A DNA stretch of 62,472 nt from Acidimicrobiia bacterium (GTDB lineage Bacteria > Actinomycetota > Acidimicrobiia > Spongiisociales > UBA5794). Made by a program: the position numbers and the translations under genes. The notes beneath the pieces are model-generated. The model was given only the letters and a program-made list of their open reading frames with translations, was not told where the DNA came from and ran no database searches. This document shows positions 44,295-60,577 of the stretch, one piece after another. The stretch is from contig JASJAS010000008.1 of assembly GCA_030066875.1 (NCBI GenBank), forward strand, positions 1 through 62,472, read 5' to 3'. Positions within the stretch are counted from its first letter, which is position 1. Each line of letters opens with the position of its first letter.

Positions 44295-46937
44295 GTGGGC
44301 GGCATGGTTCCGCTTCGAGTGAACCACGAACAGCGCACGTACGTGTTCACTCAGCCAGAGGTCACCATCGGCCGTGAAGCGGGTGTAGACGTCGTCATAG
44401 ATGTGCCCGACGTGTCACGGGTTCACGGCATCGTCAGATGGATCCATGACGAGTGGCATTTCACCGACAATTCGAGCCGCAACGGGAGCTTCCTGGCGGG
44501 GAGTCGTGTCAACGAGGTGGTGATCGATGGTTCGCTCACGGTCAATCTCGCGGGTCGAACCGGACCGGAGGTCACGTTCTCCCCAGCGATCGATCTTGCC
44601 ACGGAGGTGACCGCTACGACATCTCGGCTCGTGGGCGATATTGGCGTCGTTTCCGCAGTGCACGACACGAGGAGGGACTCGACAACTCTGGGGCGGGCTC
44701 CGGACAACGACATCGTGGTCGACGACCTTGAGGTCTCTCGCCACCACGCCGAGATGAGGACATCGACCGAGGGCCAGCTCGAAATCGTTGACCTGGGGAG
44801 CCACAACGGCACCTATGTCAATGGTGTTCAGGTGGAACGAGCCACGCTGAACGACTTCGATCTCGTGACTGTCGGTCACCACATGTTCCGGGTTCTCGAC
44901 GGTGTGCTAGAAGAGTTCGTCGATGCGGGCGCGGTGCAGTTCGAAGCCATTGGTCTCGGGGTGGAGCTCCCGGGGGGTTTTCGGATCCTGGATCAGGTCA
45001 GCTTCACGTTGCCGGAACGTAGCTTGGTCGCGGTCCTGGGGCCAAGCGGTTCCGGCAAGACGACCCTGTTGCGGGCGCTCACCGGGTTCAGTCCCGCCAC
45101 CGAGGGTCAGGTCATCTACGGCGGCCGGGATATGTATGCCTCGTACGCAGATGTGCGGCAACGTATTGGCTACGTTCCCCAGGACGACATTCTCCATAAC
45201 GAGCTCACCGTGCGCCAGGCACTGCGTTACGCAGCCCGGCTGCGCTTCCCGCCTGATGTACCGGCCGAAGACATCGCCGAGCGGGTTGACCAAGTCATCA
45301 ACGAATTGGGACTGGCGCATCGCGCCGACGTCGCCATCTCATCGCTCTCCGGGGGTCAGCGCAAACGAGCCTCGGTGGGGTTCGAGCTACTGACGAAGCC
45401 GTCGCTGCTGTTCCTCGACGAGCCGACCTCAGGACTGGATCCGGGATACGAGCGCGCCCTGACCCAGTTGCTGCGGGAGCTGGCAGACGGCGGCAGAAGT
45501 ATCGTCGTGGTCACTCACAGCGTGCAGAGTCTCGACCTGTGCGATCGGGTCGTCATGCTGGCACCGGGCGGCCGGTTGGCCTACTTCGGGCCACCTGACG
45601 AGGCTCTTCGCTATCTCGGCTGCGACTCGTTCGCCGAGGCGTATGTGCTGCTTGCCGACCCGGACGGACCGGATTGGCACCAGAACTACCAGGCAAGTCC
45701 GGCTCATCGAACCTATGTAGAGCTGCCCAACGCAGGCACCCGTGTGGAAGAGGCTGAGGCGCCAGAGGCGGCCGCACCAGTCCGGCAACGCGGCTGGTTC
45801 CGCCAATACCGCACCCTGACACGCCGCTACGCATCGGTCATCTGGCAGGATCGCAAACTCACCACCTTGCTGGCATTGCAGGCCCCTTTGCTGGCGCTGT
45901 TGATGCTGATTGCGATGGGGGAGGGTCGTCTCGCCCCGAGGACCGGACCCGGACTGTCGACGGCCTCCCTGGTCCTGGCGGTGCTTGTGCTGGCCGCCAC
46001 CTGGCTGGGTATGTCGAACTCGGGTAGGGAGATTGCCAAGGAAACCGCAATCTATCGGAGAGAGCGGGCGATTGGCCTGTCCACCTCGGCGTATGTCGCT
46101 TCCAAGGTGACGGTGCTGGCCTTCATAACGCTGTTGCAGACCACTGTTCTGGTAGTCGTCGGCCTGGCACGTCAGGGGGTCTCATCGCAGGCTGCTCTCA
46201 TTGAACCGGGCATGCTCGAATTGGTGCTTGGGGTCGGGCTCAGCGGCATCGCCGCGGTGAGTCTGGGGTTGCTGATATCGGCCTTGGCCAAGACACCGGA
46301 CCGCGCCATGAGCCTGCTCCCTGTGGTGCTTATCGTGCAGCTGGTTGTTGCCGGCGGTTTCAAGGACATGGCCGAGAAGCCGCTGCTGCGTGAGATCAGC
46401 TATGTGGCAACCGCCCAGTGGGGCTTCTCCGCGGCGGCATCAACCGTCGACCTCAACGACCTGCAGTTGCCCAACGACTGCCTGGCAGAAGTAACCCGGA
46501 TCGACGACGAGACCGGGATCGAGGATCGGGCGGCATCGTTGGCGCGCTGCGCGTTGTCTGATGCGGCGCTCATGCAAGCGATGCAGACCGTGATCGCACG
46601 ATCCCAAGAACCGCTACCGATCGAGGCCGACTGTGTTACCCAACTCGAAGGCCTCGATGCCGCAACCGTGGAAGGAATGAGTTCCGCGGAGATCGATGAG
46701 GCGCTGCTGTGTACGGCGGCTCACCCTGAGGCGGCGACCGCCGCGGTTGCGGACGAAACGGCTCTCGAGACTCTGGCAGCCCGGGCGGGACCGGTAAACG
46801 ACAATCATCCATTTCGCTTCTGGGATCAGACACCGCGTCACTGGCTCATCAACATGACACTGCTCGGGTTGCTCACAGCGTTCGGATTGGTCGGTACGTG
46901 GTGGGTGCTGCGCCGACGCGATCCTGAATCGAGCTAG
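44295..46937 (+). CDS. FHA-FHA-ABC ATPase-permease fusion transporter (Rv1747-like)
   Basis: Two FHA domains (IGR/VSRVH/SRNG; LGR/VSRHH/SHNG), GPSGSGKT, LSGGQRKR, DEPTSGLD, ABC-2 membrane domain (AKETAIYRRER). Confidence 0.95.
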   Translation: MGGMVPLRVNHEQRTYVFTQPEVTIGREAGVDVVIDVPDVSRVHGIVRWIHDEWHFTDNSSRNGSFLAGSRVNEVVIDGSLTVNLAGRTGPEVTFSPAIDLATEVTATTSRLVGDIGVVSAVHDTRRDSTTLGRAPDNDIVVDDLEVSRHHAEMRTSTEGQLEIVDLGSHNGTYVNGVQVERATLNDFDLVTVGHHMFRVLDGVLEEFVDAGAVQFEAIGLGVELPGGFRILDQVSFTLPERSLVAVLGPSGSGKTTLLRALTGFSPATEGQVIYGGRDMYASYADVRQRIGYVPQDDILHNELTVRQALRYAARLRFPPDVPAEDIAERVDQVINELGLAHRADVAISSLSGGQRKRASVGFELLTKPSLLFLDEPTSGLDPGYERALTQLLRELADGGRSIVVVTHSVQSLDLCDRVVMLAPGGRLAYFGPPDEALRYLGCDSFAEAYVLLADPDGPDWHQNYQASPAHRTYVELPNAGTRVEEAEAPEAAAPVRQRGWFRQYRTLTRRYASVIWQDRKLTTLLALQAPLLALLMLIAMGEGRLAPRTGPGLSTASLVLAVLVLAATWLGMSNSGREIAKETAIYRRERAIGLSTSAYVASKVTVLAFITLLQTTVLVVVGLARQGVSSQAALIEPGMLELVLGVGLSGIAAVSLGLLISALAKTPDRAMSLLPVVLIVQLVVAGGFKDMAEKPLLREISYVATAQWGFSAAASTVDLNDLQLPNDCLAEVTRIDDETGIEDRAASLARCALSDAALMQAMQTVIARSQEPLPIEADCVTQLEGLDAATVEGMSSAEIDEALLCTAAHPEAATAAVADETALETLAARAGPVNDNHPFRFWDQTPRHWLINMTLLGLLTAFGLVGTWWVLRRRDPESS

Positions 46938-47569
46938 TCGAGAGGTTCTAGCCGCCACTCGCTGAAGCGGAAGTTGTGATCGCCGACGGCCACCCGGTCG
47001 AGTTCCAGGATCGGGGTTCGGGTCACTCGCTGACCGTTCAGATAGGTTCCGTTGTGACTGCTCAGGTCGACGAGTTCGTACTCGTTGTTGGGGGTCACTC
47101 TGATCTCGGCGTGATGCCACGACACGGCTGGGTCTTCGACAACTACGTCGTTGTCCGGAGCTCGTCCGATTGTGATCACTTGGGCGGACTTCCGCAGCGA
47201 CCGGGTTGCCCCGGTAGCCTCCGGTTCCGAGGCGCGGGGGAGCGCGGTGGTCTTCTCACTGAGATAGGGCAAGGCTGGGGTCAGGGTGAGGAAAGGTCCG
47301 GTGGGGTCTCCGAGAGCGATCTGCATAGGCGCTCGGATTTCGACCCTGGTGACCCGGGCACCGTTGAGAAAGGTGCCGTTGGCGCTGTCCTTGTCTTCGA
47401 GGATCCAGATGTCATCCTCGAAGGCGAGCACGGCGTGCCTTCGGGATACGCGGCGGCTGGCAACGTGCAATGCAGCATCGGGATGACGCCCGATGGTCAC
47501 TATCTCATCGGGCCGGAAAGTGACGGTGGTTCCGTCGTGGGTCACCCTTATCAGCCCAGCGTCGTTCAT
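46934..47569 (-). CDS. Stand-alone tandem FHA-FHA protein
   Basis: IGRHP..VSRRH..SANGTF and IGRAPDND..VSWHH..SHNGTY; start set at ATG 47569. Confidence 0.92.
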   Translation of the reverse strand: MNDAGLIRVTHDGTTVTFRPDEIVTIGRHPDAALHVASRRVSRRHAVLAFEDDIWILEDKDSANGTFLNGARVTRVEIRAPMQIALGDPTGPFLTLTPALPYLSEKTTALPRASEPEATGATRSLRKSAQVITIGRAPDNDVVVEDPAVSWHHAEIRVTPNNEYELVDLSSHNGTYLNGQRVTRTPILELDRVAVGDHNFRFSEWRLEPLD

Positions 47570-47667
47570 ACTGCCCGGCTCATTTTTGGCACATGCGTAC
47601 TGTAGGCGATGGCCCGCGATGAGCAGTGGAAACGGACCGAAATGGGGTGGTGGAGTACACTGCAGCA

Positions 47668-50600
47668 ATGGCGCAATCCGCACCTCTCGATTTGGGGATT
47701 CCCGGTCTCGAAGATGCGATGCTCTTGGGTCGAGGTGGGTTTGCGGTGGTTTATCGGGCGTATCAGCCTGCCTTCCGACGCACAGTTGCGGTCAAGGTTG
47801 TCTCGGTCACCGAGGTCGATGAACTGACCCGCGAGCGATTCCGCCGCGAGTGCCAGGCAATGGGTCTGCTGTCGGAGCACCCATCGATTGTCACCGTGCT
47901 TGAGGCTGGCTTTCTCGACGATGGTCGTCCCTTCCTGGTCATGGCATACATGCCGGAAGGCTCACTGCAGGACCGGCTGCGCCAAGGCCCCCTCGGATGG
48001 CAGGAAGCGACCCGGATCGCGGTGAAACTGGCTGGAGCCCTTGGGACCGCCCACCAGGCCGGGGTGCTGCACCGTGATGTGAAACCGGCCAATGTGCTCG
48101 TATCGCAATACGGCGAACCGCAACTGGCCGACTTCGGCATCGCCCGCGTGGCGGGCGGTCAAGAGACGTCGTCTGGGGTCATCACCGCTTCGTTGTCCTA
48201 CGCGCCTCCGGAGATCGTCGATGGGCAGCGCCCGTCTGTAGCTTCCGATGTGTACTCGCTGGGAGCCACAGTCCATGCGCTGATGACTGGAGCCGCTCCT
48301 TTCTGGAAGGATCGCGAGGACTCGATTGCCGCGCTGTTGAATCGGGTGATGAATCACCCGCCGCGTGATCTCAGGGAGTTCGGTGTCCCCTCCAACGTAG
48401 CTGAGGTGCTCGAGCTCACGATGGCGAAGGATCCTCAGGATCGGCCGGCATCCGCTGCCCAGTTCGGCAGGCTGCTCCGTCTGGCTGAGGACGAGAACGG
48501 GTTGCGCCCTACCCAGATGACGGTCTACAAGCCGGCTGACGAGCCACATCCCCCGACTCCGCCGGTCGAAGCACCACCGACCGAAGTAGCGCCCAGCATC
48601 GAGGATTCCGAGGACTTCACCGACTCACCGACGGATATCGTCGACACCGACGAGATGCTCACTGCCGCCGCCACAGCGACGGCAGCTGCCACATCGATCA
48701 ACGAGACCCCATCAGTGGACGGTCCGCCGACCGGTACCGTCGAGCAAGATGCAGCCGAAACCGAAGTGATCGACGAGCAGCAGACGGCTGAAGTTGTGGC
48801 TCCGGTTGCGGATGGGCTGGTGGCGGCGCCGGACGTGGAGGCATCGGAGCCCGTTGTGGAACCCGAGATGGCCCCTACTGCCACGGTGGCTGCCGCCAGC
48901 GCTGCAGCGCCCCCGGACGCGACGACTGACCTGCCCGCCGGGCCCGAGGCCGGTCAGGAACCGGAGGCGCCGGGCCGGCGCCGTGGCCTTTGGCTTGGGG
49001 TGGCGGCGGTTGTGGCGCTGCTCGCGGTGGTCGGCGGGTTCTTCTTGACCAGAGGCGGCGACGCCGGGCCTATAGACACGACGATACGAAGCACAAGCGA
49101 CGGGAGCTCAGATTTCGAACCGCCGCCTTGGTGGACAGCCGACCCGGTTCTCGGCTCGGCGGTGCTGGTTGATCATGAATCGCATGTAGACCGAAACTTC
49201 GAGCAGCTCGCTGTAGGCTCGGGGCCGGTGACCGGCGAGCAGCGCTGGGTCGCACCCACTCCGCCGGCGTGGTCGCCGGAGTTCTATCACGGCTGGATGC
49301 TCGTAGGATTGTCCGAGGGCGAACAGGATCCGTACACCGAACAGCAGATTGAAGAGAAACGCTTCTTTCGCGAGCCGGCGTCGGCCGAAGGCGACTATGC
49401 CGCCGTAGTCCGCTTCACGCCCACGCAGCTCGACGGCTATCTCCTGTTCAACCTCGAACACAACTCGGCAGACGGCAGTGAGCACCGGATGTTCTCGATT
49501 GATCTCGGGACCAACAGCTCGGGGTTTGCTTTCACCACTCAAGATGGGGACCAATCCGGCGATGACCCCTTCCAGCGGCCAATCGAACTCGAGGTCGATA
49601 AGTCGTACGACTTAGCCCTCGTGGCGACTACAACTGGGGCATTCCGGGCTTTGGTCTGGCCTTCCGGAGAGATGGCGGCCGGAGTCGATGAAGTCGCCGG
49701 AATCGAAACCGAAGCCGGACATGAGTTCGTCACCGACAACTGGATCGCAAGCATCGGGGTGGGTCCGGGTTCGGCGATATCGATAGACGAGTTTTGGGGC
49801 TTCCGGCTTCCGACCCCAGGCGGTGATGCGGCGGTGCCGGACGACGAGGCCGAGCCCGGGCCGACGATTACATTCGATTTCCCGCAGTGGTGGCTCGCCG
49901 ACCCTGACTGGTCGCGGGCTGAGCTGGTCGATCACGAAACCCACGACAGTTACAACTGGGTTGTCGGCGACACCGCGGCCTCTGTGTGGCACTCGCCCCC
50001 ACCTCCGCCGACGTGGCGTGGGACGTTTGGAGGGGGGCTGATGACGATTGCGACGGAAAGGGGAGAGTCCGACAACATCGGTATTCCGATTGAGAGCAAA
50101 CGCTTCTGGCGGGCACCAACCACTTCGACAAACGAGTATGCAGCGGTGTTCCGTTTGATCGTCAACGAGCTCGGTGACGGGTTCCAGATCTTCATTGAGA
50201 GCGGGGCCTTCGACGCAGGCTTCTTTCGCAACGTCGTGCTCGTCGTAGACGGAGAGGGGCAGGTGTTTGCGCATTACTCACAGGGTGATGACGACTCTTT
50301 CCTAATCCAAGACCTTGACAACCCCATGAAGCTCCTCCCCGGCACCTCTTACGATGTTGCACTCTTCGCCGAAGGAGGTGGCGTCTTCAACCTCCGCCTT
50401 TGGCCCACCGGCCAGTCGCCACAGGAGCTAGAAGATGTCCCAGGAATACGGCTCGAACTAGGGGATGAGTTCGTGGTGACAGGGGGGTGGGACCCCGGCA
50501 TGGACGTTGTCGCCGGGGCATCCGTTTCCATTGACGAGTACTGGGGCTTCGAGCTACCCGGCGCTGGCGATGAGGCGCCGCTGGCGTCAGCCGATGTCGG

Positions 50601-51522
50601 TCTGGTGTTCGACATTGGTGGTCGCGGCGACCAGTCGTTCAATGACGCCGCCGCCGCAGGACTCGACCAGGCCACCGCCGAGCTCGGCATCCGCCCATCC
50701 GAAGCCTCGGCCAACCAGGACGGTTCGAACCGGGAGGAACTGTTGGCACTGCAGGCCGACGAGTCCGATCTGGTGTTTGGTGTCGGTTTCTTGTTTGCCG
50801 AACCGATGTTGAGTGTTGCTGAGGCATACCCAGACGTGAGTTTCGCCATCGTTGACGACTCGTCGATCGATCTGCCCAACGTCGCCAACCTGGTGTTTGC
50901 AGAGGAGGAAGGCTCTTATCTTGTCGGTGTCGCTGCCGCGCTCAACAGTCCGAATCTGCGGGTGGGTTTCATCGGGGGAGTCAACATGGAGTTGATCCAG
51001 CGGTTCGAGGCCGGGTTCACCGCGGGAGTCACCGCGGTCAACCCGCTCGTGACCGTCGATGTGCAGTACCTGACGGAACCCCCCGACTTTGCCGGTTTCA
51101 ATGACCCGGCGGCGGCCCGAGTTGTCGCCGAGGCGATGTATCAACGCGGCGCCGATGTGATCTACCACGCCGCCGGCGGATCCGGGGCCGGGCTGTTCCA
51201 GGCGGCCAAGGACTACTCGGAGGCCAACAACACCAAGGTCTGGGCCATCGGGGTGGACTCCGACCAGTATTTGACAGCGGATGAGGGAGTGCGGCCCTAC
51301 ATCTTGACTTCGATGATGAAACGGGTCGATACCGCGGTGTACACAACAGTCCAGGACTTCGTGAGCGGCAGGTTCACGTCGGGAACCACGGTCCTCGACC
51401 TTTCGGTCGATGGGGTCGGCTACGCCACCAGCGGCGGGTTCGTGAACGCCATCATCGACCAGCTCGAGGACTACAAAACCCAGATCATCTACGGAAGTAT
51501 CCAGGTACCGACTGTGCCTTGA
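47668..51522 (+). CDS. Hanks-type Ser/Thr kinase - acidic linker - TM - two ~230 aa repeats - BMP (PnrA/TmpC-like) binding domain
   Basis: LGRGGF, VAVK, HRDVKPAN, DFG, YAPPE; TM at 48988-49050; repeats at 49114-49812 and 49873-50559; BMP motifs GGRGDQSFND, EEEGSYLVG, IYHAAGGSG, AIGVDSDQ, SMMKRVD; leaderless TACACT-N6-ATG. Confidence 0.93.
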   Translation: MAQSAPLDLGIPGLEDAMLLGRGGFAVVYRAYQPAFRRTVAVKVVSVTEVDELTRERFRRECQAMGLLSEHPSIVTVLEAGFLDDGRPFLVMAYMPEGSLQDRLRQGPLGWQEATRIAVKLAGALGTAHQAGVLHRDVKPANVLVSQYGEPQLADFGIARVAGGQETSSGVITASLSYAPPEIVDGQRPSVASDVYSLGATVHALMTGAAPFWKDREDSIAALLNRVMNHPPRDLREFGVPSNVAEVLELTMAKDPQDRPASAAQFGRLLRLAEDENGLRPTQMTVYKPADEPHPPTPPVEAPPTEVAPSIEDSEDFTDSPTDIVDTDEMLTAAATATAAATSINETPSVDGPPTGTVEQDAAETEVIDEQQTAEVVAPVADGLVAAPDVEASEPVVEPEMAPTATVAAASAAAPPDATTDLPAGPEAGQEPEAPGRRRGLWLGVAAVVALLAVVGGFFLTRGGDAGPIDTTIRSTSDGSSDFEPPPWWTADPVLGSAVLVDHESHVDRNFEQLAVGSGPVTGEQRWVAPTPPAWSPEFYHGWMLVGLSEGEQDPYTEQQIEEKRFFREPASAEGDYAAVVRFTPTQLDGYLLFNLEHNSADGSEHRMFSIDLGTNSSGFAFTTQDGDQSGDDPFQRPIELEVDKSYDLALVATTTGAFRALVWPSGEMAAGVDEVAGIETEAGHEFVTDNWIASIGVGPGSAISIDEFWGFRLPTPGGDAAVPDDEAEPGPTITFDFPQWWLADPDWSRAELVDHETHDSYNWVVGDTAASVWHSPPPPPTWRGTFGGGLMTIATERGESDNIGIPIESKRFWRAPTTSTNEYAAVFRLIVNELGDGFQIFIESGAFDAGFFRNVVLVVDGEGQVFAHYSQGDDDSFLIQDLDNPMKLLPGTSYDVALFAEGGGVFNLRLWPTGQSPQELEDVPGIRLELGDEFVVTGGWDPGMDVVAGASVSIDEYWGFELPGAGDEAPLASADVGLVFDIGGRGDQSFNDAAAAGLDQATAELGIRPSEASANQDGSNREELLALQADESDLVFGVGFLFAEPMLSVAEAYPDVSFAIVDDSSIDLPNVANLVFAEEEGSYLVGVAAALNSPNLRVGFIGGVNMELIQRFEAGFTAGVTAVNPLVTVDVQYLTEPPDFAGFNDPAAARVVAEAMYQRGADVIYHAAGGSGAGLFQAAKDYSEANNTKVWAIGVDSDQYLTADEGVRPYILTSMMKRVDTAVYTTVQDFVSGRFTSGTTVLDLSVDGVGYATSGGFVNAIIDQLEDYKTQIIYGSIQVPTVP
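49114..50559 (+). repeat. Two tandem copies of an unrecognised ~230 aa extracellular domain
   Basis: Shared motifs WW.ADP....A.LVDHE.H, IE.KRF.R.P, YAAV.R, SYD.AL.A, WP.G, GI..E.G.EFV, SIDE(F/Y)WGF.LP. Confidence 0.9.
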
Positions 51523-51577
51523 GCGTGGTGCGGAGGGGTGACGGCTAGTCTCGGCTGTGCGCGTTTGCGGAGGGTGG

Positions 51578-53881
51578 ATGGAGTTCAGGATTCTCGGGTC
51601 GCTCGAGATCGAGGCTTCTGACGGATCACCGCTGCAGGTTTCAGGACCCAAGCAACGCGGTCTTCTTGCATTGCTCGTGATTCATGCGAACGAAGTCCTC
51701 TCCACCGATCGGATCATCGATGCGCTCTGGGGGGAGGAGCCTCCGTCAGGAGCCCTGAACTCGTTGCGCTTTCACATTTCCAAGCTCCGGTCGGCTCTCG
51801 GGGATGAGCAGGAGAGGCTGGCAACCAAGGGGCCCGGCTACGTGTTGCTTGCAAGTCCCGGGGAAGTCGACGCGCAACGATTCGAATCTGCAGTGGCCGA
51901 GGCGGTTGCACTGGTTCCCGACAACCCGGAAGCGGCTGTCGCTCGATATCAAGACGCCATCGAGTTGTGGCGGGGTCCCACCCTCGCCGATTTCGAATAC
52001 GAGGACTTCGCTCGCACCGAAATCGCCCGATTGCGGGAGCTGCGTCTCGCCGCCGTCGAGGGAAGGTTCGAAGCAGAGCTCGCTGCCGGTCGTCATGACG
52101 AGTTGGTAGGAGAATTGCGCACACTGGTTGACGAGCATCCCCTACGCGAGCGGCTCTGGGCCTCACTGATGACTGCGCTGTACCGCAGTGGCCGCCAGGC
52201 GGAAGCTCTCCGGGCGTATCAGGAAGCGCGCTCCACGCTGGGTGATGAACTCGGCATTGAGCCCTCCGAGGAGCTACGTGATCTCGAGGAGAAGGTGCTC
52301 CTCCAGGACGAATCAATCAAGACCCCGGACGCCCCTCGTCGCGCGCACAACCTTCCCGCCAGAGTCAGTCGCTTCGTTGGCCGTGATCAGGAGATCTCGA
52401 CCATCGGCAAGCTGCTTGGTCGGAGCCGGTTGGTAACGCTCATGGGCGTTGGTGGTGTCGGTAAGACGAGTCTTGCTCTCGAGGTTGCCGGGCGTCACGT
52501 CGACGAGTTCCGGGACGGTGTCTGGTTGGTCGACCTGGCGACGGTGACGGACGCTACTGGGGTGTTGGTTGCTGCTGCGGAAGCCCTTCGAGTGCGCACC
52601 CGATCTTCCGAGCACATCCTCGCCGACATCCAGCTGCGGATGGCCAACACCGAAGTGCTTGTCATCTTGGACAACTGCGAACACGTAATCGCTGCCGCGG
52701 CTGATCTCGCCGCCGACCTCCTTGCGAAGTGCCCTGGAGTGAAGATTCTGGCCACAAGCCGGGAACTGCTGTCAGTTCCCGGCGAGATCACCTTTGGTGT
52801 GTCGCCGATGACGCTCGGCGATGACCATGTTGCGGGCGATGCTGTCGCGCTGTTCACCGACCGGCTTGAGGCCTTCTTGCCGGGCACCGGCCTAGGCGAT
52901 GAAGAGCAGCAGACGGTGTACCGGATTTGTCGTGCGGTCGATGGCTTGCCTCTCGCAATCGAGCTCGCCGCCGCCCGCACCCGTGCCCTCTCGCTCGACG
53001 AAGTGGAACGTCGCCTGAGTGACCGCTTTGCACTGCTGGCCGGGGGCAGCCGAACCGCAGCCCCCCGGCAGCGAACTCTGCGGGCAACCATCGACTGGAG
53101 CTACGACTTGCTCTCGGACTCCGAGCAAGGGCTCTTTGCCGTGTTGTCGGTGCTGCCGGGCTCGTTCACCGCCGAAGCTGTGGAAGCGATTGTTCGAGCA
53201 GGCAAGTGGGAAGATGATGCGCTCGACCTGCTCGCAGCCCTGGTAGACAAGTCGTTGGTCGCCCGGATCGGCGGCCGCTACTACCTGCTGCCTACGTTGC
53301 GGCGCTACGCCGCCGGGAAGGTAGACGGGAAAGCGATAGCACGAACGAGGCGCGTCCTGGTCGAACACTATGCCGGACTCGCTTCCCGGCTCGAAGACAG
53401 CTTCTTTGCCACAGAAGAGCCTCAGTTAGCCGAGCACGTTGTCGACGAACGCTCCAATATGCGATCGGCCTTGGCGTGGTCAATGGAAAGCGGTGACACG
53501 GATGCGGCGCTGACTGTTGCTGCGTCTCTGGCCTTCTATTGGATCCGATCGGGCGTTTGGACAGAGGGCTGGTTGAGACGGGGAGTAGGTGCCGGGGACG
53601 ATGTTCCACAGACGGTCCAGCTCCAGGAGGGATTGTTGCTGCTGGAAGGGATTGCGGAACCGGCCGACGCTCTAGCGGCCCTTGCGCAGCTAGTCGAGAA
53701 GGAGGGCGAGGCGGCTAGAGCCACCCGTCTCCTCGGAGCTGCGCACCAGATCCGCCATGACCTCGGCCACGAGCCACCGCGGGCGGAAGACGACCTCGCG
53801 GGCCGTCTGGAGCTCGCTCTAGGCAAGGAGTCGTTTGACGACGAGTGGCAAGCAGGACGAACTGTGGCGCAGCGCCGGTGA
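51578..53881 (+). CDS. SARP (wHTH-BTAD) - STAND ATPase regulator (AfsR-like) with a short C terminus
   Basis: MEFRILGSLE, LVDEHPLRERLW, ALYRSGRQAEAL, HNLPARVSRFVGR, GVGGVGKTSLA, LDNCEHV, DGLPLAIELAAAR. Confidence 0.93.
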   Translation: MEFRILGSLEIEASDGSPLQVSGPKQRGLLALLVIHANEVLSTDRIIDALWGEEPPSGALNSLRFHISKLRSALGDEQERLATKGPGYVLLASPGEVDAQRFESAVAEAVALVPDNPEAAVARYQDAIELWRGPTLADFEYEDFARTEIARLRELRLAAVEGRFEAELAAGRHDELVGELRTLVDEHPLRERLWASLMTALYRSGRQAEALRAYQEARSTLGDELGIEPSEELRDLEEKVLLQDESIKTPDAPRRAHNLPARVSRFVGRDQEISTIGKLLGRSRLVTLMGVGGVGKTSLALEVAGRHVDEFRDGVWLVDLATVTDATGVLVAAAEALRVRTRSSEHILADIQLRMANTEVLVILDNCEHVIAAAADLAADLLAKCPGVKILATSRELLSVPGEITFGVSPMTLGDDHVAGDAVALFTDRLEAFLPGTGLGDEEQQTVYRICRAVDGLPLAIELAAARTRALSLDEVERRLSDRFALLAGGSRTAAPRQRTLRATIDWSYDLLSDSEQGLFAVLSVLPGSFTAEAVEAIVRAGKWEDDALDLLAALVDKSLVARIGGRYYLLPTLRRYAAGKVDGKAIARTRRVLVEHYAGLASRLEDSFFATEEPQLAEHVVDERSNMRSALAWSMESGDTDAALTVAASLAFYWIRSGVWTEGWLRRGVGAGDDVPQTVQLQEGLLLLEGIAEPADALAALAQLVEKEGEAARATRLLGAAHQIRHDLGHEPPRAEDDLAGRLELALGKESFDDEWQAGRTVAQRR

Positions 53882-53949: not shown

Positions 53950-55035
53950 ATGATCCGGCGACTGGCGCTAGTAGCCGTCCTTTTGCTCATCGGGCCTGCT
54001 TGCAGTGGTGACGACCAGACCGTCGCTGAAACCACCACGACTCAGGTGACGACTACGACGGTCGCCGAAGCCGGCCCCACCGAAACCCTGGAGATCGTGC
54101 GCGCCCGGGACCGGCTGGTCTGCGGACACGGTCTAGGGATCCCTGGTTTCGCCGACTTGGGACCGCGCGGCGAGCTCACCGGTCTCATGCTCGATTTCTG
54201 CCGCGCGGTTGCAACTGCGGTTGTCGGAGATGCAGCCAAGGTGGATTGGGTCTCCCTGGAGCCCAGTGAGATGATCGATGTCCTGGCTCAAGGTGATGTG
54301 GACTTACTGACCCACTTCACCACCTGGACCTTCAGTCGGGACAACGCTTCTCCGGTCGATTTCGGTCCAACGTACTTCTTTGATGGACTCGGGATTCTGG
54401 TTGCGGCCGCGGAGCATCAGGCGTCCGATGGCTTGGACTCGCTGCAGGGCGAGACGGTCTGCACCGTCGCAGGGACAACAAGCGAAGCGAACCTACGGTC
54501 GGCGGCTGAACACGCAGGAGTCGTGCTCGACATCCGAACCTTCCCGGACCCCTTCCAGATCTGGGACGCCTTCCGGGCCGGAGAGTGCGAGGCCAACGTA
54601 GGGGAGCGTTCGGTGCTCTTTCTGACGCGCGGCGAGCACTTCGACTCGCCCGAGGATGGGCTGGTGCTCGACCTCGTTCTGGCGCAGGAGCCACTTGGTC
54701 CGGTTTACCGGGAGGGTGACCCCACGTGGGCGGACATCGTCAACTGGACCATGTATGCCCTGCTGGTAGCCGAGGAGAAGGGGCTGACGAGCGAGAATAT
54801 CGAAGAGAGGGTGGCGACGAGCACCGATCCTGAAGTCCTGGCGCTATTCGCTGGCCAAGGGCTCTCGCTGTCTGAGTCGATGGATTTGGATCGCGAGGCC
54901 TTCCGAAGGGTGATCAGGGTTCTCGGCAACTATGACGAGATCTTCGAACGCAACCTCGCCCCGCTGGGTGTGAGTCGAGGGCTGAATGCATTGTGGCGTG
55001 ATGGCGGGCTGATGTTTGCACCGCCGGCGCGCTAG
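53950..55035 (+). CDS. Orphan AapJ/BztA-like amino-acid ABC substrate-binding lipoprotein
   Basis: GPA|C lipobox, DFCRAVATAV, TTWTFSRD, FGPTYFFDG, VCTVAGTTSE, EPLGPV, WADIVNW, GNYDEIFERNL, WRDGGLMFAPP; no permease nearby. Confidence 0.92.
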   Translation: MIRRLALVAVLLLIGPACSGDDQTVAETTTTQVTTTTVAEAGPTETLEIVRARDRLVCGHGLGIPGFADLGPRGELTGLMLDFCRAVATAVVGDAAKVDWVSLEPSEMIDVLAQGDVDLLTHFTTWTFSRDNASPVDFGPTYFFDGLGILVAAAEHQASDGLDSLQGETVCTVAGTTSEANLRSAAEHAGVVLDIRTFPDPFQIWDAFRAGECEANVGERSVLFLTRGEHFDSPEDGLVLDLVLAQEPLGPVYREGDPTWADIVNWTMYALLVAEEKGLTSENIEERVATSTDPEVLALFAGQGLSLSESMDLDREAFRRVIRVLGNYDEIFERNLAPLGVSRGLNALWRDGGLMFAPPAR

Positions 55036-58000
55036 CCCTCCGATCCAGCCTGCCCTTTCGACCAGGCTTCGTACGCCTGCCAGTCGGCTTCGATGAGCGA
55101 GAAGATGGCTTCGACCCCACCAAGTTCGCCGGCGTGGATTTCAGCAATGCCGGCCAGGAAGCTCCCCGGGGTCCCCAACTCGAATATGTACCCGGGGTGG
55201 AGTTCCCGCATTGATCCCGGGCCCGCGGTGCCGATTGCGCCCGGCATAAGGTCCGACCCGTCGAAGCGGAAACGATTCTGCTGCAGCCCGCTGCGAATCA
55301 GCTCCCGGGCGTGTTGCTGAAGGGGGTCTGCAGCGGTAGGGGGGTCATTGTCGAGGTGAGGAAGCGACGACCACAAGCCTGGGTAGTCGGACGATGCGAG
55401 AAAGCGCATCAATTCCCGAATCTCGGGCCTGTCGCGCATCGCCATGATCATTTCGCCACCGCCGAGGATGTAAGGCGACCGTTCTTCGGAGATCGGGGGG
55501 AGCGGAAACATGTCGTAGCCAATGCCGAACTCCAGATCCGGAGGCGGTGCTGGTCCCATGTACATGGCGCAGCCAGGAGGGTCGGAGGCGAACAGGCGAT
55601 GGACCTCCTCGAAGTCGATCAGCAACACGCCTCCTTCGCCTGTTTCCACAAGACCCTCACCAAGTGCGATCTTCGCAAACTCCTCTCCGGCAGACACGAT
55701 GTCCGGATGATCAAACGGTATGTCGTTGCGTATCCACTGGTCGTAGATCGCCGCGCCGGAGTTCGCCAGCACCAGGCTCTCAACCCAGTCGGTTCCCGGC
55801 GCGCCAGTCCAGTGCCCCAGGAATTCGCCCATGCACCATGGGCCCTGGCCATCCGCAGCCAGACGCTCGGTCACCGCCAGCAACTCACCCCAAGTTTGCG
55901 GGACGTCATAGCCGGCGGCGCTGAAGACGTCCGCCCGGTAGAACACGAGGTTCTTGATGCTGAGCTGTGACCACAAACCGAGGGTGGATCCCGAGGTGGC
56001 AGGCCATTCTCCCGATTCGCCGATCGTGACTAGCGAGAGCAAGTAGTCACCGTATCGGTCGCCCAGGGCACCTCGGTCGAGGTACATCCCGATGTCGATC
56101 ACTGTGTCCGTACCAGCGGAGACAATCCGGCCCGGATCGCTTGCGACGACCAGGTCGGGCAAGAACTGTGGTGGGCTGTTCCCGGTAAAAAGCCCAGTCT
56201 CGTATTCGATCTCTATCCCGGTCGATTCTTGGAATTCGCCGAGGGCCGCGGCGAATCCGGAAACCTTGGGTTCGCCCCAGAACGGATCCCGCAGCACTGC
56301 AGTCGTGCCGGCCAGAGGCTGGTTGGGATCTGCGGTGTCACCGTTCGGCTCGACAACGGCCGTCATCAGAACCGTGGTGTCGGAGAGCGAGCATGATGCG
56401 GTCTGGAAGTATGTCAGGCACTCGGAGTTGCCGAAGACCCTACCGTCGGCGGCTAGCGTCAGTGCCTCGGCCACCCACGACAGCGGAACGTCGTATAGCC
56501 CCTGCGGACCGTCCGGGCCGGGACGCACTAACACGGGGCCGCCGTCGGCGGGGTACGGGACTTGCGAGGCTTGCAGCGTCCAATGCATGGCATCCCTGAC
56601 CTCGGGCAGCACCTCACCCGAGATGTCGGCTGTGACTGTTGCGGCCTCGAGGCTCAGCAATGCTGCCAATTGCGGGTCGATCGTCAGTCGATCGAGTGCC
56701 GCAGCAGCCAACTCGCGGGCCCGGGGCGTCGCCTCCACCAATGCCAGCTCCCGTTGCCGATCGGCCTCGCGTCGTTGCGCAACCGCAAAGACCGTAAGCG
56801 TCACCGCCGTCACGATGGCGGTGGCCAGCACGGCGACCAGCCCCCAGGTACGCCGCTTCGACCGCCGCTCGAGCCGTAGTTGTGCCGCTACCCGGGCTCG
56901 CTCGATTTCCTCGGCCTCTTCCCGGGCACCCACACTCGCCTGCAAGAAGGTCCGCTCGGCAGCAGTGAGGGCAATCTCCGAATCCTCCGCCCAGACGGCA
57001 AGCCGGTCGAGGGCGCCACCGCTGAGCAAGTAGTCGTCACTGCGATCCGCTTCGACCCACTCGCGGCATGCCGCAGTGAGTCTGCGGTGGGAGCGAACAT
57101 CATCGCGATGATCCTCGATCCATTGGCGCAGCCGAGACCATTCGCGAAGCAGCGCTTCGTGCGCGACCTCGACGGTCGCCGCTCGGGTCCGCGGATCGCG
57201 ATCGAAAGAGAGCAGACGGTACCTGCCAAAAGCTTCAAGCACGTCCTGTGTTGCCTTATGGAAGCCGAAGATGGAGTCGAGTTCACCCCGCCGCACCCTG
57301 CGCCGAGAGTCCTCGGCGCCCTCCTCGACCGTCACCAGTCTGAGGAAGATTTGACGGGCAGCGGCCTGAGCGGCCGCCGACAAGGATTCGAAGACCTGTT
57401 CGGCCCGGGTCGCCAAAGCTGCCGAGACACCTCCTGAAGCGTCGTAGGCAGCAGCCGGTATCAGGTGCCCGTCGCGGCGCTCGAAGGCCTCGGTCATCGC
57501 ATATTGAACGAGCGGGAGCATCCCGGGCTGACCGGCAACATCTCCGGCGATTCGTTCTGCGAGACCGGGTTCGAGGCCAACGCCAATCGTTCGCGCCGGC
57601 TCGGATATGGCCCGCAGCATCTCTGCTGCGCTGAGTGGCATCACTGTGACCATCTGACTGCGCACCAACTCGCCAAACCCGGCGTACTGAAGTGGCCGGT
57701 CGTAGAAGTCGGCCCGCAACGTGATCACGACGCGAACGCGGTTGCGTTCGTCGGCCACGGTCTCAGCCAGCATGTGGAGAAAGGCAGAGCGGGTCGCTTC
57801 GTCTTCGACCAACGTGAACAATTCCTCGAATTGGTCCACCACCAGCAGCAGCTCTGCGGAGTCATCACGCAGAATGGCCGCCGCTGCTGCAGACAGGACG
57901 GTGAGATCAACGGAGGCGTGTTCGCCGGCTGAGATGCGACGCAATGCCGCGGCAAGTGCATCGAACGGGTACTGACCTGGATACATGGAGACGATGAACC

Positions 58001-59714
58001 ACCGGTTTGATCCGGGCACGGCTCCTCTTCGCAGCGCAGGGATCAGACCCGCGTTGACGGCACTCGATTTCCCGGACCCGCTCGGACCAACCACCGCGAG
58101 GAAGCGACCTGTCGGGCCGCGTTGTGAGAGGAAGTCCACAAGGTCGGCGGTCAGCCTCTCGCGGCCGAAGAACACGCCGGCGTCTCCTTCTGCGAAGGGG
58201 CGTAGGCCCAGATATGGGTTGGGCAGGTCGGCGTCTCCGGCGGGCGTTGGCTTTGCCCGCCCGGCCGCCTCGCCGAAGGACGCGACGAATTCCAAAGCCG
58301 ACATCGATTCGCCGGCCGCTGTCGCTTCGGCCAGTTCGCGGAGAGCCGGGGACGCACCCTCCATGGAGTCGAGGATCGATAGGACGACTCGAGCCAATCC
58401 GGCAACGTCCGCTGACATCACAGCGTCGCGGTCCGTGCCAGTCGCCGCATCCGCGGCGAGGTCACGGGCGACACCGAAGTCCGATAGATAGGCGTTACGA
58501 TCCTCGTCGAAGAGGATGTTCGAGCCTTTCACATCGCCGTGAACGACACCCTGTCGATGGGCGGCGTCCAAACCGCCCCCGACCTGTTCAACCATCCTGA
58601 ACAGCGCATCCCAGGTCCATGCTGAGGTGACGCTGGCAGCGCTGCCTCCACGAAAGAGACGCATCACGATGAAGGCGCCCCGGGGCTCCCTCCAGAAGTC
58701 ATAAAGCGGCACGATATGGGGGTGCTCCAACCTGGCAACCAACTGGGCCTCTGCATCGAAGGCACGGACAAAGGCGGGATCGTCGGCGAACCTGGGCCGG
58801 ATCACCTTCACTGCGACCTCGCGTCCGATTGAGTGCTGGTAGGCGACGTGGACCTCTCCAAAGCGACCGGCACCGATTTGTTCCCTGAGCTCGTACCCAC
58901 GTATGGAGCGCCCGGTAGCCGCAGCGGTCTCGGTGGGCTCGAGAACCGACACTGGACCGGATGGGGTCACGTTGAGAGAGGCGTCCTGCATCAAGATCTG
59001 CCGCTCGAGCTCCTTTAGCTCTGGAGAAGGATCGATCCCTAGTTCCTCGACCAGCGTCCGGCGGGTACGTTCATACGCGCGGAGCGCTTCGGACTGTCGC
59101 CCGGAGCGATACAAGGCAAGCATGAGCTGCCCACCGAACCGCTCTCGGAGCGGGTACTCCTGCACCAGAGTTTCGAGTTCGCCAACCAACCCGCTGTCGT
59201 AACCCAATGCCAGCTCTGCATCGATGCGGTACTCGATCGCGGTGAGCCGAAGTTCGTCGAGGCGGGTGATCTCTGGGCGCAACGCCGGTTCACCGCCGAG
59301 GTCTGCATAGGGTGCGCCCTGCCACAGCTCCAATGCTTCCCAGAGCATCCGGGTAGCGGCTGCCGGGTCGGCATCGATGACTGCTCGCGCCTGCGTCGTG
59401 AGCGCGGAGAAACGATGAGCGTCGATCAGCTCAGGCTCAACCGTGATTACGTAGCCGGGATCCTTGCGGAGCAAGGTCTCCGGTCGAGCGCCCTCGATGG
59501 CGCGCCGCAGGTGCGAAACGTAGGACTGCAGAGTTCGCTTCGCTCCTTCGGCGGGCTCGCCACGCCAAACATCTTCTAGGAGGCGATCGGTCGACACCAC
59601 CTCGTTGGCATGGGCGAGAAGGAGAGCGAGTACCAGGCGCTGCCGCGGGCCACCCAGGGGCAGCCGTTCACCCTCGTGATGGACCTCGAGAGGCCCCAGC
59701 ACCCGAAAATCCAC
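55032..59714 (-). CDS. SARP - degenerate Ser/Thr kinase - nSTAND1-type NTPase - TM - extracellular family-1 (AglE-like) solute-binding domain
   Basis: MDFRVLGPLE/BTAD; VAVK, HGDVKGSN, DFG; NPYLGLRPF, GPSGSGKSS, VVDQFEELF, LRADFY, VAHEALL..W; one TM; SIKNLVFY...VPQTWGEL...PWCMG...TDWVE..YDQW..IPFDHP. Confidence 0.9.
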   Translation of the reverse strand: MDFRVLGPLEVHHEGERLPLGGPRQRLVLALLLAHANEVVSTDRLLEDVWRGEPAEGAKRTLQSYVSHLRRAIEGARPETLLRKDPGYVITVEPELIDAHRFSALTTQARAVIDADPAAATRMLWEALELWQGAPYADLGGEPALRPEITRLDELRLTAIEYRIDAELALGYDSGLVGELETLVQEYPLRERFGGQLMLALYRSGRQSEALRAYERTRRTLVEELGIDPSPELKELERQILMQDASLNVTPSGPVSVLEPTETAAATGRSIRGYELREQIGAGRFGEVHVAYQHSIGREVAVKVIRPRFADDPAFVRAFDAEAQLVARLEHPHIVPLYDFWREPRGAFIVMRLFRGGSAASVTSAWTWDALFRMVEQVGGGLDAAHRQGVVHGDVKGSNILFDEDRNAYLSDFGVARDLAADAATGTDRDAVMSADVAGLARVVLSILDSMEGASPALRELAEATAAGESMSALEFVASFGEAAGRAKPTPAGDADLPNPYLGLRPFAEGDAGVFFGRERLTADLVDFLSQRGPTGRFLAVVGPSGSGKSSAVNAGLIPALRRGAVPGSNRWFIVSMYPGQYPFDALAAALRRISAGEHASVDLTVLSAAAAAILRDDSAELLLVVDQFEELFTLVEDEATRSAFLHMLAETVADERNRVRVVITLRADFYDRPLQYAGFGELVRSQMVTVMPLSAAEMLRAISEPARTIGVGLEPGLAERIAGDVAGQPGMLPLVQYAMTEAFERRDGHLIPAAAYDASGGVSAALATRAEQVFESLSAAAQAAARQIFLRLVTVEEGAEDSRRRVRRGELDSIFGFHKATQDVLEAFGRYRLLSFDRDPRTRAATVEVAHEALLREWSRLRQWIEDHRDDVRSHRRLTAACREWVEADRSDDYLLSGGALDRLAVWAEDSEIALTAAERTFLQASVGAREEAEEIERARVAAQLRLERRSKRRTWGLVAVLATAIVTAVTLTVFAVAQRREADRQRELALVEATPRARELAAAALDRLTIDPQLAALLSLEAATVTADISGEVLPEVRDAMHWTLQASQVPYPADGGPVLVRPGPDGPQGLYDVPLSWVAEALTLAADGRVFGNSECLTYFQTASCSLSDTTVLMTAVVEPNGDTADPNQPLAGTTAVLRDPFWGEPKVSGFAAALGEFQESTGIEIEYETGLFTGNSPPQFLPDLVVASDPGRIVSAGTDTVIDIGMYLDRGALGDRYGDYLLSLVTIGESGEWPATSGSTLGLWSQLSIKNLVFYRADVFSAAGYDVPQTWGELLAVTERLAADGQGPWCMGEFLGHWTGAPGTDWVESLVLANSGAAIYDQWIRNDIPFDHPDIVSAGEEFAKIALGEGLVETGEGGVLLIDFEEVHRLFASDPPGCAMYMGPAPPPDLEFGIGYDMFPLPPISEERSPYILGGGEMIMAMRDRPEIRELMRFLASSDYPGLWSSLPHLDNDPPTAADPLQQHARELIRSGLQQNRFRFDGSDLMPGAIGTAGPGSMRELHPGYIFELGTPGSFLAGIAEIHAGELGGVEAIFSLIEADWQAYEAWSKGQAGSEG

Positions 59715-59841
59715 GGCTCCCTTTCCGCGGTCGCGACCTGCCAGATGTTAACGGTTGAGTCGGATTCCTCTGCTTCGCATCCGGGTCTCAGTGCTCGTCG
59801 ACACTGGAACGGGTCCTCGTAGCCCAGAACAGCTCCGGGGT

Positions 59842-59869
59842 CTCAACATCCTCTCAACACCTGACCAAC
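59842..59869 (+). promoter_or_regulatory. Three phased (C/A)(T/C)CAAC repeats at 11 bp spacing
   Basis: CTCAAC 59842, CTCAAC 59853, ACCAAC 59864; an additional GTTGAG at 59754, 40 nt upstream of the SARP start. Confidence 0.65.
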
Positions 59870-59902
59870 AAGCCCGCAAGCGCTCGGGCGGACGCTGCAG
59901 AT

Positions 59903-60577
59903 ATGCAGCAAACAACCCGCCTCCTCAGCACAATCGCACTGATCTTCTCGCTACTCCTGGCCGCTCAGCCAGCATTCGCCAGTTCATCGTCAGGTCGCCG
60001 GGCGGGTGCAGATCGCCCGGCCACCTCCGTGCTCGGGGCGACCGAGCAGGAAACGGAGATGGTGGAATGGGCACTCGGACGTTTTGCGGCGGCGGGCATG
60101 GAACTCCCAGCGGTGAAGGTTGGGTTCTTCACCGATTATGAGGACTGCCTGGGGTTCATTGGATACTTCCGCACGTCGACCCGCACGGTGTTCATGTGCA
60201 ACCGGGGCGGGGAAGAGAGAGTTCCGGAGCATACGCTGATTCATGAACTCGGTCATGCTTGGGCGGATCACAACCTTGAGGCGGCGGATCGGGAAGCCTT
60301 TATGGAACTCCGTGGCGTTGAGTTCTGGAACACGGGTGGAAGCGGTGCAGCGTCCCCGGCCTGGTGGCAACGAGGCTACGAACACGCTGCAGAGATCATC
60401 GCGTGGGGCCTTGCCGAGACGCCGTTCCACAGCATGTGGTTGCACACCGAACTGTGCACCGATCTCGCTAGCGCATTCACCGCACTTACTGGTATCGAGC
60501 CGCTCAACGACTCGACCAGCTTTTGCAAGTGCCAAGAGGCAGGCTCGCCTTACAAGCAAGCGTGCCCGGCGGACTAG
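59903..60577 (+). CDS. Secreted zincin-like (HExxH) protein
   Basis: Signal peptide ending AQPAFA, HTLIHELGHAW, downstream YEHAAEIIAWGL as candidate third ligand, several Cys. Confidence 0.7.
   Translation: MQQTTRLLSTIALIFSLLLAAQPAFASSSSGRRAGADRPATSVLGATEQETEMVEWALGRFAAAGMELPAVKVGFFTDYEDCLGFIGYFRTSTRTVFMCNRGGEERVPEHTLIHELGHAWADHNLEAADREAFMELRGVEFWNTGGSGAASPAWWQRGYEHAAEIIAWGLAETPFHSMWLHTELCTDLASAFTALTGIEPLNDSTSFCKCQEAGSPYKQACPAD

Follow-up and report, generated by a model that had tools for sequence, protein, structure and literature searches.

A predicted membrane-spanning SARP-STAND receptor and its probable target, a secreted zincin gene, in an Acidimicrobiia bacterium

STAND/NLR-type switches are considered to be cytosolic receptors, and SARPs (Streptomyces antibiotic regulatory proteins) as soluble activators of antibiotic clusters. 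In the SARP-family activator AfsR, the NOD and TPR domains inhibit the SARP domain and ATP binding relieves this inhibition (PMC10936776). The DNA sites of SARPs are direct repeats that overlap the -35 region and lie 8 nt ahead of the -10 element (PMC11301090). Here, we describe a gene pair of an Acidimicrobiia bacterium found in contig JASJAS010000008.1 (assembly GCA_030066875.1), of which a stretch of 62,472 nucleotides, hereafter the window, was analysed. One gene (55032..59714) encodes a receptor in which a SARP module, a kinase-like domain, an nSTAND1 NTPase, a predicted transmembrane (TM) helix and a solute-binding protein (SBP) domain follow each other in one polypeptide; the other, divergent from it, encodes a small putative secreted metallopeptidase with an HExxH motif, hereafter the zincin. 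In full-text literature searches, nSTAND1 was found only in papers on conflict systems, and no paper on this receptor architecture or on the zincin was found. Our computational analysis uncovered the architecture of the receptor, the conservation of its topology signals, the fold of its ectodomain, the linkage of the two genes and, for the boxes that precede the zincin gene, their phasing, their position and their covariation with the recognition helix. We consider it likely that the two genes form a signalling module made of a membrane receptor and a cognate secreted-protease gene.

The features of the two genes and of the region between them are listed in Table 1. At the N-terminus of the receptor, the original prediction had placed a winged helix-turn-helix (wHTH) followed by a BTAD domain, and both were recovered by Pfam with scores above the curated cut-offs; a Trans_reg_C domain directly followed by BTAD is the SARP module. 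The NCBIfam model of AfsR matched this SARP part only, with 176 bits versus a cut-off of 1430. Farther along the protein, the same prediction had called an nSTAND1 NTPase from position 58226 (aa 497) and a TM helix at 56850-56779. The Pfam match to nSTAND1 (PF20703) indeed begins at aa 500, covers profile positions 1-378 of 379 and holds intact Walker A (GPSGSGKSS, aa 543-551) and Walker B (LLLVVDQFEE, aa 622-631) motifs, and the hydrophobic peak agrees with the called helix to within one codon. Two of the assignments had to be qualified. A kinase had been proposed at 58895-58270 (aa 274-481), and a Pkinase match does start at aa 274 (aa 274-423, E 2.6e-28), but it takes in profile positions 1-152 of 263 only, and the domain is truncated and degenerate in this clade. 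Similarly, the C-terminal region called an AglE-like family 1 SBP (56320-55035, aa 1132-1560) is a family 1 SBP (SBP_bac_1, aa 1153-1443, E 9.9e-12), but “AglE-like” could be narrowed no further than to a CUT1-type sugar SBP. No TPR was detected in the receptor by the Pfam scan. When converted to residues, all of the positions in the original prediction agree with these domains to within a few codons.

Table 1. Positions of the receptor gene, the zincin gene and their features in the window (aa, residues of the encoded protein)
Feature	Position	Strand	Residues or details	Basis
Receptor gene	55032..59714	(-)	Single intact open reading frame (ORF), 1560 aa; GTG start with GGGAG ahead	ORF translation
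OmpR-type winged helix (Trans_reg_C)	59481..59648	(-)	aa 23-78	Pfam, E 2.6e-11
Recognition-helix region of the wHTH			KRTLQSYVSHLRR	
BTAD	58992..59426	(-)	aa 97-241, full profile	Pfam, E 1.6e-44
Kinase-like domain	58245..58895	(-)	aa 274-490	Pfam Pkinase and family alignment
nSTAND1 NTPase	57036..58217	(-)	aa 500-893	Pfam, E 6.5e-119, 398 bits
Predicted TM helix	56778..56846	(-)	aa 957-979, WGLVAVLATAIVTAVTLTVFAVA	Kyte-Doolittle hydropathy
Predicted extracytoplasmic stalk/juxtamembrane module	56325..56777	(-)	aa 980-1130, Cys pair C1099/C1108	
Family 1 (CUT1-type) SBP ectodomain	55035..56324	(-)	aa 1131-1560, Cys pair C1294/C1382	
Zincin gene	59903..60577	(+)	Divergent from the receptor; 224 aa, signal peptide, HELGH at aa 114-118, six Cys	
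Candidate SARP boxes	59841..59880	(+)	TCTCAAC 59841, TCTCAAC 59852, GACCAAC 59863, degenerate CCGCAAG 59874; 11-nt phasing	
-10-like hexamer GACGCT	59891..59896	(+)	6 nt before the ATG at 59903 (-12 to -7)	

The fusion is not peculiar to this contig. An ectodomain scan of 1.84 billion representatives returned 196 clusters (50%-identity level) at E<=1e-30; in many of these, the protein measures 1000-2000 aa and is matched at its C-terminal end. The architecture itself, with the same Pfam series, is shared by ~36 protein clusters of 1520-1740 aa (search with aa 960-1560), drawn from NCBI, JGI, ENA and Logan assemblies. The closest homologs, P0003 and P0004, are 53-55% identical to the receptor over aa 960-1560, have lengths of 1544 and 1534 aa and carry a collinear set of Pfam domains. 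These data bear on the suspicion that the protein is an artefact, that is, a misassembled fusion or a polypeptide whose hydrophobic helix does not cross the membrane and whose SBP stays in the cytoplasm. The source genome is fragmented (3.16 Mb in 171 contigs, 81% completeness), and no point in support of an artefact was found. The same collinear architecture recurs in dozens of independent assemblies, which answers the concern about misassembly, and the base composition is even along the ORF (GC 0.62-0.67), with no break. As for topology, the strength of the TM helix, the charge bias, the pattern of cysteines and the lipoprotein relatives all indicate export. This explanation is close to refuted and we give it almost no weight.

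Residues 957-979 form the sole hydrophobic peak of the receptor, with a Kyte-Doolittle mean of 2.44 over 19 aa, and are flanked on the N-terminal side by RLERRSKRR. Exactly one strong hydrophobic 19-mer (means of 2.1-2.9) is present in every SBP-bearing homolog of this architecture and in the WD40-type relatives; in all of the ~54 relatives the TM helix lies between nSTAND1 and the C-terminal domain, with 3-8 Lys/Arg within the 15 residues preceding it. Cysteines are scarce in the cytoplasmic part (one in the 956 residues of the receptor, 0-3 in most relatives and up to 7 in one), and the ectodomain of ~560 aa nearly always has four or six. The two pairs listed in Table 1 are conserved or invariant among the homologs, with a correlated presence, and the pair C1294/C1382 is retained in 36 of the 39 free-standing SBP relatives of the ectodomain. 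These free-standing proteins (30-39% identity, ~430-450 aa) mostly start with lipoprotein signal peptides. With DNA and ATP required by the N-terminal part and a single TM helix in the protein, the SBP would be placed outside the cell, and from this set of signals we strongly infer an N-in/C-out, single-pass receptor, in agreement with the single helix and extracytoplasmic SBP of the original prediction. The topology signals give the layout of ToxR and CadC, with a wHTH on the inner side, a single TM helix and an extracytoplasmic sensor.

To describe the ectodomain, aa 956-1560 were modelled with AlphaFold2 from 35 sequences (predicted local distance difference test score, pLDDT, of 89; predicted template modelling score, pTM, of 0.88). 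In the model, one continuous helix of ~53 residues runs through the membrane segment into the stalk, which is modelled at high confidence. It is followed by a small helical/beta module that contains the first Cys pair, then by a two-lobed binding domain. When the model was compared with the PDB using Foldseek, sugar SBPs filled the top ranks (E ~1e-14, target template modelling scores of 0.7-0.79, ~450 columns), the top neighbours being binding proteins for xylo-oligosaccharide (4g68), glucose/galactose (2b3b) and chitin-oligosaccharide (7ehu), as well as AcbH (3ooa), which is also the best PDB match by sequence (E 7e-5). The two-lobed type-II periplasmic-binding fold and the SBP_bac_1 membership, found by Pfam, by the model with its Foldseek neighbours and by the identity to lipoprotein SBPs, support the assignment of the ectodomain as a family 1 (CUT1-type), sugar-type SBP. 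Judged from the modelled fold, a sugar or glycan is a plausible ligand; the structural neighbours bind diverse sugars.

An SBP on a membrane protein could also serve a transporter. In such a model, the tethered SBP would dock onto an ABC importer and report its flux, as the 30-39% identity of the ectodomain to free-standing lipoprotein SBPs might suggest, together with the position of its nearest free-standing paralog in the source genome, within a LacI-SBP-permease-permease operon on contig C86. We find transporter coupling very unlikely, however. No BPD_transp_1 permease gene is present within ~26 kb of the receptor, the nearest in the window lying at 27.7-29.4 kb, no permease gene is conserved across 40 loci at which receptor and zincin genes are linked, and the paralogs with WD40 ectodomains cannot dock onto importers.

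Another binding-protein gene lies next to the receptor gene. It encodes an SBP_bac_3 (amino-acid-binding) lipoprotein (53950..55035, plus strand) and is convergent with the receptor gene, the two stop codons overlapping by 4 nt; no permease gene is found nearby. This gene was considered as a part of the module and discarded, being kept only at the two closest loci (L001 and L002), and we regard its position as local synteny.

The kinase-like domain of the receptor keeps the G-loop, VAVK, Glu, HGD-VKGSN and DFG motifs. The family alignment shows that the receptor, P0003 and P0004 have all lost the activation loop, the P+1 loop, the APE motif and a portion of the C-lobe. Most kinases of the receptor family are complete, with HRD, DFG, SPE/APE and a full C-lobe; other lineages carry HGE, HGG, HGA or HGR in place of HRD, and some are clear pseudokinases. 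Going by these motifs, catalysis is evidently dispensable in several receptor lineages, and the domain studied here is probably not a normal kinase and probably acts as a scaffold or a nucleotide-binding module.

We then turn to the partner gene. The zincin had no family match in Pfam, NCBIfam or PADLOC. In an alignment of 62 zincin sequences, residues C82, C99, H114, E115, H118, W120 and E160 are invariant, so that the HExxH motif and a third metal ligand (E160) are present in all 62. The AlphaFold2 model (pLDDT 83) gave weak Foldseek matches in the PDB, to generic zincin cores (E >= 2e-3). On these grounds, the partner is a new family of small, secreted, gluzincin-like HExxH+E putative metallopeptidases.

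The pairing of the two genes is conserved. Zincin homologs are found divergently upstream of the receptor gene at L001, L002 and L003, and the pairing is kept with the P0023 receptor even though that protein is only 33% identical to the receptor of the window. A scan of species-representative genomes yielded 78 zincin loci, mostly in Acidimicrobiia, and a SARP gene adjoins the zincin gene in 50 of them, nearly always with nSTAND1 behind the SARP part. The genes are divergent at 40 of these 50 linked loci; the receptor gene lies upstream on the same strand at five and downstream on the same strand at another five. The sensor of the linked receptor can be an SBP, WD40 (L023), Bmp (L014 and L076) or an unrecognised domain, and across 40 linked loci no gene besides these two is conserved. 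Within the source genome, seven zincin paralogs are encoded, and three receptors, the one described here (C9) and its paralogs C55 and C78, each have their own divergent copy.

Such linkage might also be expected if the zincin acted on the receptor instead of being (only) its target, cleaving the shared stalk in the manner of a site-1 protease and freeing or activating the cytoplasmic SARP-STAND part. The zincin does accompany the constant SARP-nSTAND1-TM-stalk chassis whichever sensor (SBP, WD40 or Bmp) is attached to it, and the linkage outlasts changes in gene order. Proteolytic release is nevertheless improbable in our view. A SARP-box promoter of its own precedes the zincin gene even where the latter follows the receptor gene on the same strand, the Bmp-type paralog C13 is paired with a secreted esterase behind the same type of promoter, and no intramembrane protease gene is conserved nearby.

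That the receptor would activate the zincin gene was proposed in the original prediction from phased repeats upstream of the latter. Two exact TCTCAAC heptamers are indeed located there, 11 nt apart, and the candidate boxes as a whole span -62 to -23 relative to the zincin ATG, with starts at -62, -51, -40 and, for the degenerate copy, -29. At L001 and L002, the boxes and the element GACGCTGCrGATATG are retained while the remaining spacer has diverged. Among 44 divergent intergenic regions (~41 of them non-redundant), an exact 7-mer repeat at 11-nt spacing was observed in 18, versus 0-7 at each of the remaining spacings between 7 and 24. In -10 hexamers, the A at position 2 and the T at position 6 are conserved. 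GACNNT-N6-ATG/GTG occurred in frame in 37 of the 73 zincin genes, the background density being 1.5e-4 per nt; this element is also present at the partner genes of the C55, C78 and C13 paralogs and is kept where the zincin gene lies co-directionally downstream of the receptor gene. Because the start codon is only 6 nt past this -10-like hexamer, the zincin mRNA would be leaderless.

The boxes also vary with the receptor. The three pairs of the source genome share the box register (-51, -40 and -29 from the ATG), with sequences that differ: TCTCAAC at C9, CTGCAAC/CTGCACG at C55 and GCACTAA at C78. Across loci, paralogs and orthologs, the type of box tracks the recognition helix of the wHTH. The helix NALWVHxSxLR is found with the box TAAGCC, TxQSYVSHLR with TCAAGCG (TCTCAAC in the window), RKTLQVYVARLR with TGCAGCC and RKTIQGYVHHLR with TCCAACC. 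By computation, these candidate sites make up a SARP-type target promoter, with direct heptamers in 11-nt phasing beside a -10 element. Linkage at 50 of the 78 loci, phasing, the placement of the boxes ahead of a -10-like hexamer and start codon that are themselves conserved, and the covariation of box and helix all uphold the proposal that the zincin gene is the target of the receptor.

Box-like sequences of the opposite orientation also face the receptor gene and may point to its autoregulation. GTTGAG at 59753 (GTTAACgGTTGAGT, 59746-59759) in the window and GGTTGGC/GTTGACC at L001 (GGTTGGCacctGTTGACC, 11 nt apart, about 540-565) are suggestive, and both were set aside as too weak.

Beyond these regularities, we infer DNA binding by a membrane-tethered protein, its gating by a ligand, the class of that ligand and the activity and substrate of the protease. 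In the resulting model, the extracytoplasmic CUT1-type SBP, held on its helical stalk, would bind a small ligand outside the cell, for which a carbohydrate or glycan fragment is the most likely candidate, and closure of the SBP would be relayed to nSTAND1 via the continuous helix formed by the stalk, the TM segment and its cytoplasmic extension. By analogy with AfsR, nSTAND1 might keep the N-terminal SARP inactive until ATP binding or oligomerisation releases it, with the degenerate kinase-like domain as a scaffold or nucleotide-binding module between the two. Several SARP domains of the oligomer could then occupy the three to four TCTCAAC-type heptamers phased at 11 nt and recruit RNA polymerase to the GACGCT -10 element, leading to a leaderless mRNA for the secreted HExxH+E metallopeptidase.

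Several points weigh against this model. A protein tethered to the membrane, with 956 residues in the cytoplasm, would have to come into contact with the chromosome. Between the end of the last box and the -10-like hexamer there are 10 nt, versus 8 nt at AfsR sites, and the assignment of the -10 element and of the leaderless start is deduced from conservation only. Two of the five nSTAND1 receptors of the source genome have no zincin neighbour, and the P0012 locus (L007-L009) has a full receptor with no adjoining zincin. A sugar sensor that drives a protease also has no obvious physiological logic.

To place the receptor among its relatives, we compared the five nSTAND1 receptors of the source genome. 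These are the C9 receptor described here (SARP-kinase-like-nSTAND1-TM-SBP, 1560 aa), C86 (SARP-kinase-nSTAND1-TM-propeller, ORF of 1744 aa), C78 (SARP-pseudokinase-nSTAND1-TM-WD40, ORF of 1719 aa), C13 (SARP-nSTAND1-TM-Bmp, ORF of 1219 aa) and C55 (SARP-pseudokinase-nSTAND1, incomplete, ended by the contig edge). The C-terminal repeat sensor (WD40 or TPR) of nSTAND1 proteins is absent from the C9 receptor, which has SBP_bac_1 instead, and C86 and C78 keep beta-propellers. The stalk of the receptor (aa 940-1055) is 41-49% identical (E ~1e-24) to that of SARP-kinase-nSTAND1-TM-WD40 and cyclase-nSTAND1-TM-WD40 proteins. The segment ARELAAAAL...LAALLSLEA (aa 999-1024), which had been read beforehand as a usual lead-in to WD40 repeats, lies within this post-TM stalk, and in nSTAND1-TM-WD40 proteins the stalk does enter the propeller. 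The proposed replacement of a repeat sensor by an SBP holds as a swap relative to the WD40-type relatives, but the swap did not create the membrane tether. The comparison supports a sensor exchanged on a constant chassis, with a tether older than the exchange. Because the relatives carry the same TM helix and stalk, their WD40 and Bmp sensors would also be located outside the cell.

The motif (F/L)T..EC..(Y/F)......C(P) is found between stalk and SBP in the receptor (aa 1097-1109) and at the extreme C-terminus, after the propeller, in C86 and C78. Its placement suggests that the propeller was inserted into the juxtamembrane module and that the SBP was appended to it.

Outputs are exchanged as well. 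Kinase-less variants of ~1300 aa were found (P0011, P0021, P0031, P0033, P0037 and P0038), as were variants without SARP and kinase (P0014, P0026 and P0028), and in P0029 a TIR domain stands ahead of nSTAND1 in place of the SARP. The contigs that encode P0026 and P0029 are ~3.5 kb long and contain no flanking sequence. The same SBP clade is also C-terminal on caspase-TPR (P0164), CHAT (P0174) and MscS-cNMP (P0136) proteins. From these domain combinations, the clade appears to have been reused widely as an extracellular sensor, with outputs that differ greatly.

The gene controlled by the SARP-type members may vary too. The divergent neighbour of the Bmp-type paralog C13 is not a zincin gene and encodes a secreted alpha/beta-hydrolase, an esterase (C13:15498-16208, minus strand; L089:502-1209; Pfam BD-FAE, E 2.5e-15). 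It is preceded by a GACCTT-N6-ATG core and by weak phased boxes, CTTACAC/CTTAATC/CCCACAC. Because this esterase gene sits behind the same type of promoter, the output of the receptor family appears to be a secreted hydrolase, and not specifically a zincin.

Two purposes are possible for the module, which could sense a nutrient or glycan and control a secreted hydrolase accordingly, or could be an NLR-like surveillance receptor. The latter overlaps the model given above and differs from it only in biological purpose. The protein would not sense nutrients and would be a transmembrane STAND pattern receptor for an extracellular sign of danger or of a competitor (fragments of cell-wall glycans, for example), the secreted hydrolase would be the effector, and the SARP would be one of several interchangeable outputs. 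Surveillance is supported by the TIR-nSTAND1 (P0029), caspase-TPR (P0164) and CHAT (P0174) proteins fused to the same SBP clade, the patchy distribution of the zincin (10 of 151 genomes of the class) and its strong lineage-specific expansion together with the receptors (5 receptors and 7 zincins in 3.2 Mb). In addition, nSTAND1 was defined in conflict systems (PMC8195603), and caspase proteins with a TM helix and an extracellular periplasmic-binding protein domain were mentioned by Kaur et al. 2020 (PMC7159879). Surveillance is nevertheless a possibility that we regard as the less likely one, as conservation, not diversification, is seen in the family at the residues expected to line the SBP pocket, PADLOC yields generic kinase-domain matches only, and no known defence genes are conserved near the linked loci.

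Membership of the receptor in a known defence system was examined separately and rejected. The PADLOC matches were to the kinase models PD-T4-6 and mad6, over aa 266-434 only, and the zincin gave none.

A broader picture can be drawn from these relatives, which we regard as quite possible though short of probable. It is that of a family of transmembrane NLR-like receptors in which a constant chassis (nSTAND1, TM helix and disulfide-bonded stalk) would carry an exchangeable sensor outside (CUT1 SBP, Bmp or WD40) and an exchangeable output (SARP or TIR, with caspase and CHAT on related SBPs). Each SARP paralog, with its own recognition helix and its own box ahead of a leaderless secreted-hydrolase gene, would form one of several insulated lines from cue to enzyme in the same genome, possibly for surveillance of glycans from the cell wall or from competitors and not for nutrient sensing.

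Other signalling genes are found on the same side of the receptor gene as the SBP_bac_3 gene. A 1298-aa protein (47626..51522, plus strand) combines a Hanks kinase, a TM helix, two copies of an unassigned extracellular domain of ~230 aa and, at the C-terminus, a binding domain of the Bmp/PnrA type; it gives the island a second receptor whose ectodomain has a solute-binding fold. Next to it, two genes from the receptor, a 774-aa soluble AfsR-like SARP is encoded (51557..53881, plus strand), in which a P-loop NTPase and a helical C-terminal region accompany a SARP domain with 50% identity to that of the receptor. Beside the receptor kinase, at 44295..47683, lie the genes of an 880-aa FHA-FHA-ABC transporter fusion with an Rv1747-like layout and of a convergent 249-aa FHA-FHA protein.

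If the module works as proposed, an extracellular cue can drive a STAND NTPase, and an entire pathway from signal to gene fits in one protein and ~190 bp of DNA. Each paralog's own pairing of box and recognition helix would then be a natural, insulated sensor-promoter part, and such pairs would be a direct route to what uncultured Acidimicrobiia sense around them. The family would also imply that the many actinobacterial nSTAND1-TM-WD40 proteins hold their propellers outside the cell.

The module combines features of AfsR-type SARPs, of ToxR/CadC activators and of STAND conflict proteins, and is a member of none of these groups. Like AfsR and the other large Streptomyces SARPs (SARP-NB-ARC/NOD-TPR, with the kinase AfsK), the receptor starts with a wHTH and a BTAD domain followed by a gating NTPase of the STAND class. 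The likeness to AfsR extends to direct-repeat sites on one face of the DNA beside the -10 element and to a connection with a Ser/Thr kinase. Unlike AfsR, the receptor has an nSTAND1 and not an NB-ARC NTPase, lacks TPRs, is predicted to span the membrane with an SBP sensor outside, and carries its kinase-like domain fused in cis and in a degenerate form. With ToxR and CadC it shares a cytoplasmic N-terminal wHTH of the OmpR type, one TM helix, an extracytoplasmic sensor and DNA binding from the membrane, which is predicted for the receptor. Those activators, however, have no BTAD, kinase-like or STAND modules, their cytoplasmic part is ~180 aa versus 956 in the receptor, and they have no homology to it beyond the wHTH, the sensor of the receptor being a Venus-flytrap SBP. 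The STAND/NLR-like conflict proteins (Kaur et al. 2020/2021; Avs, bNACHT) follow the same logic of output, NTPase and C-terminal sensor, and relatives occur with TIR, caspase or CHAT as output and with WD40 as sensor. In contrast to these proteins, the receptor has a transcription activator with a cognate promoter as its output and an extracellular SBP as its predicted sensor, and it has no match to defence models beyond the kinase fold. Finally, in the EmbR/PknH system of Mycobacterium tuberculosis, an extracellular sensor is likewise coupled to a SARP-type activator, through Hanks-kinase chemistry. Receptor Ser/Thr kinases that have an extracellular sensor domain also belong to this comparison, and the window encodes one of them, the kinase-TM-Bmp protein at 47626..51522. 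In EmbR/PknH, two proteins are linked by phosphorylation and an FHA domain, whereas the receptor described here is one polypeptide with a STAND switch and a kinase that has probably lost its normal function.

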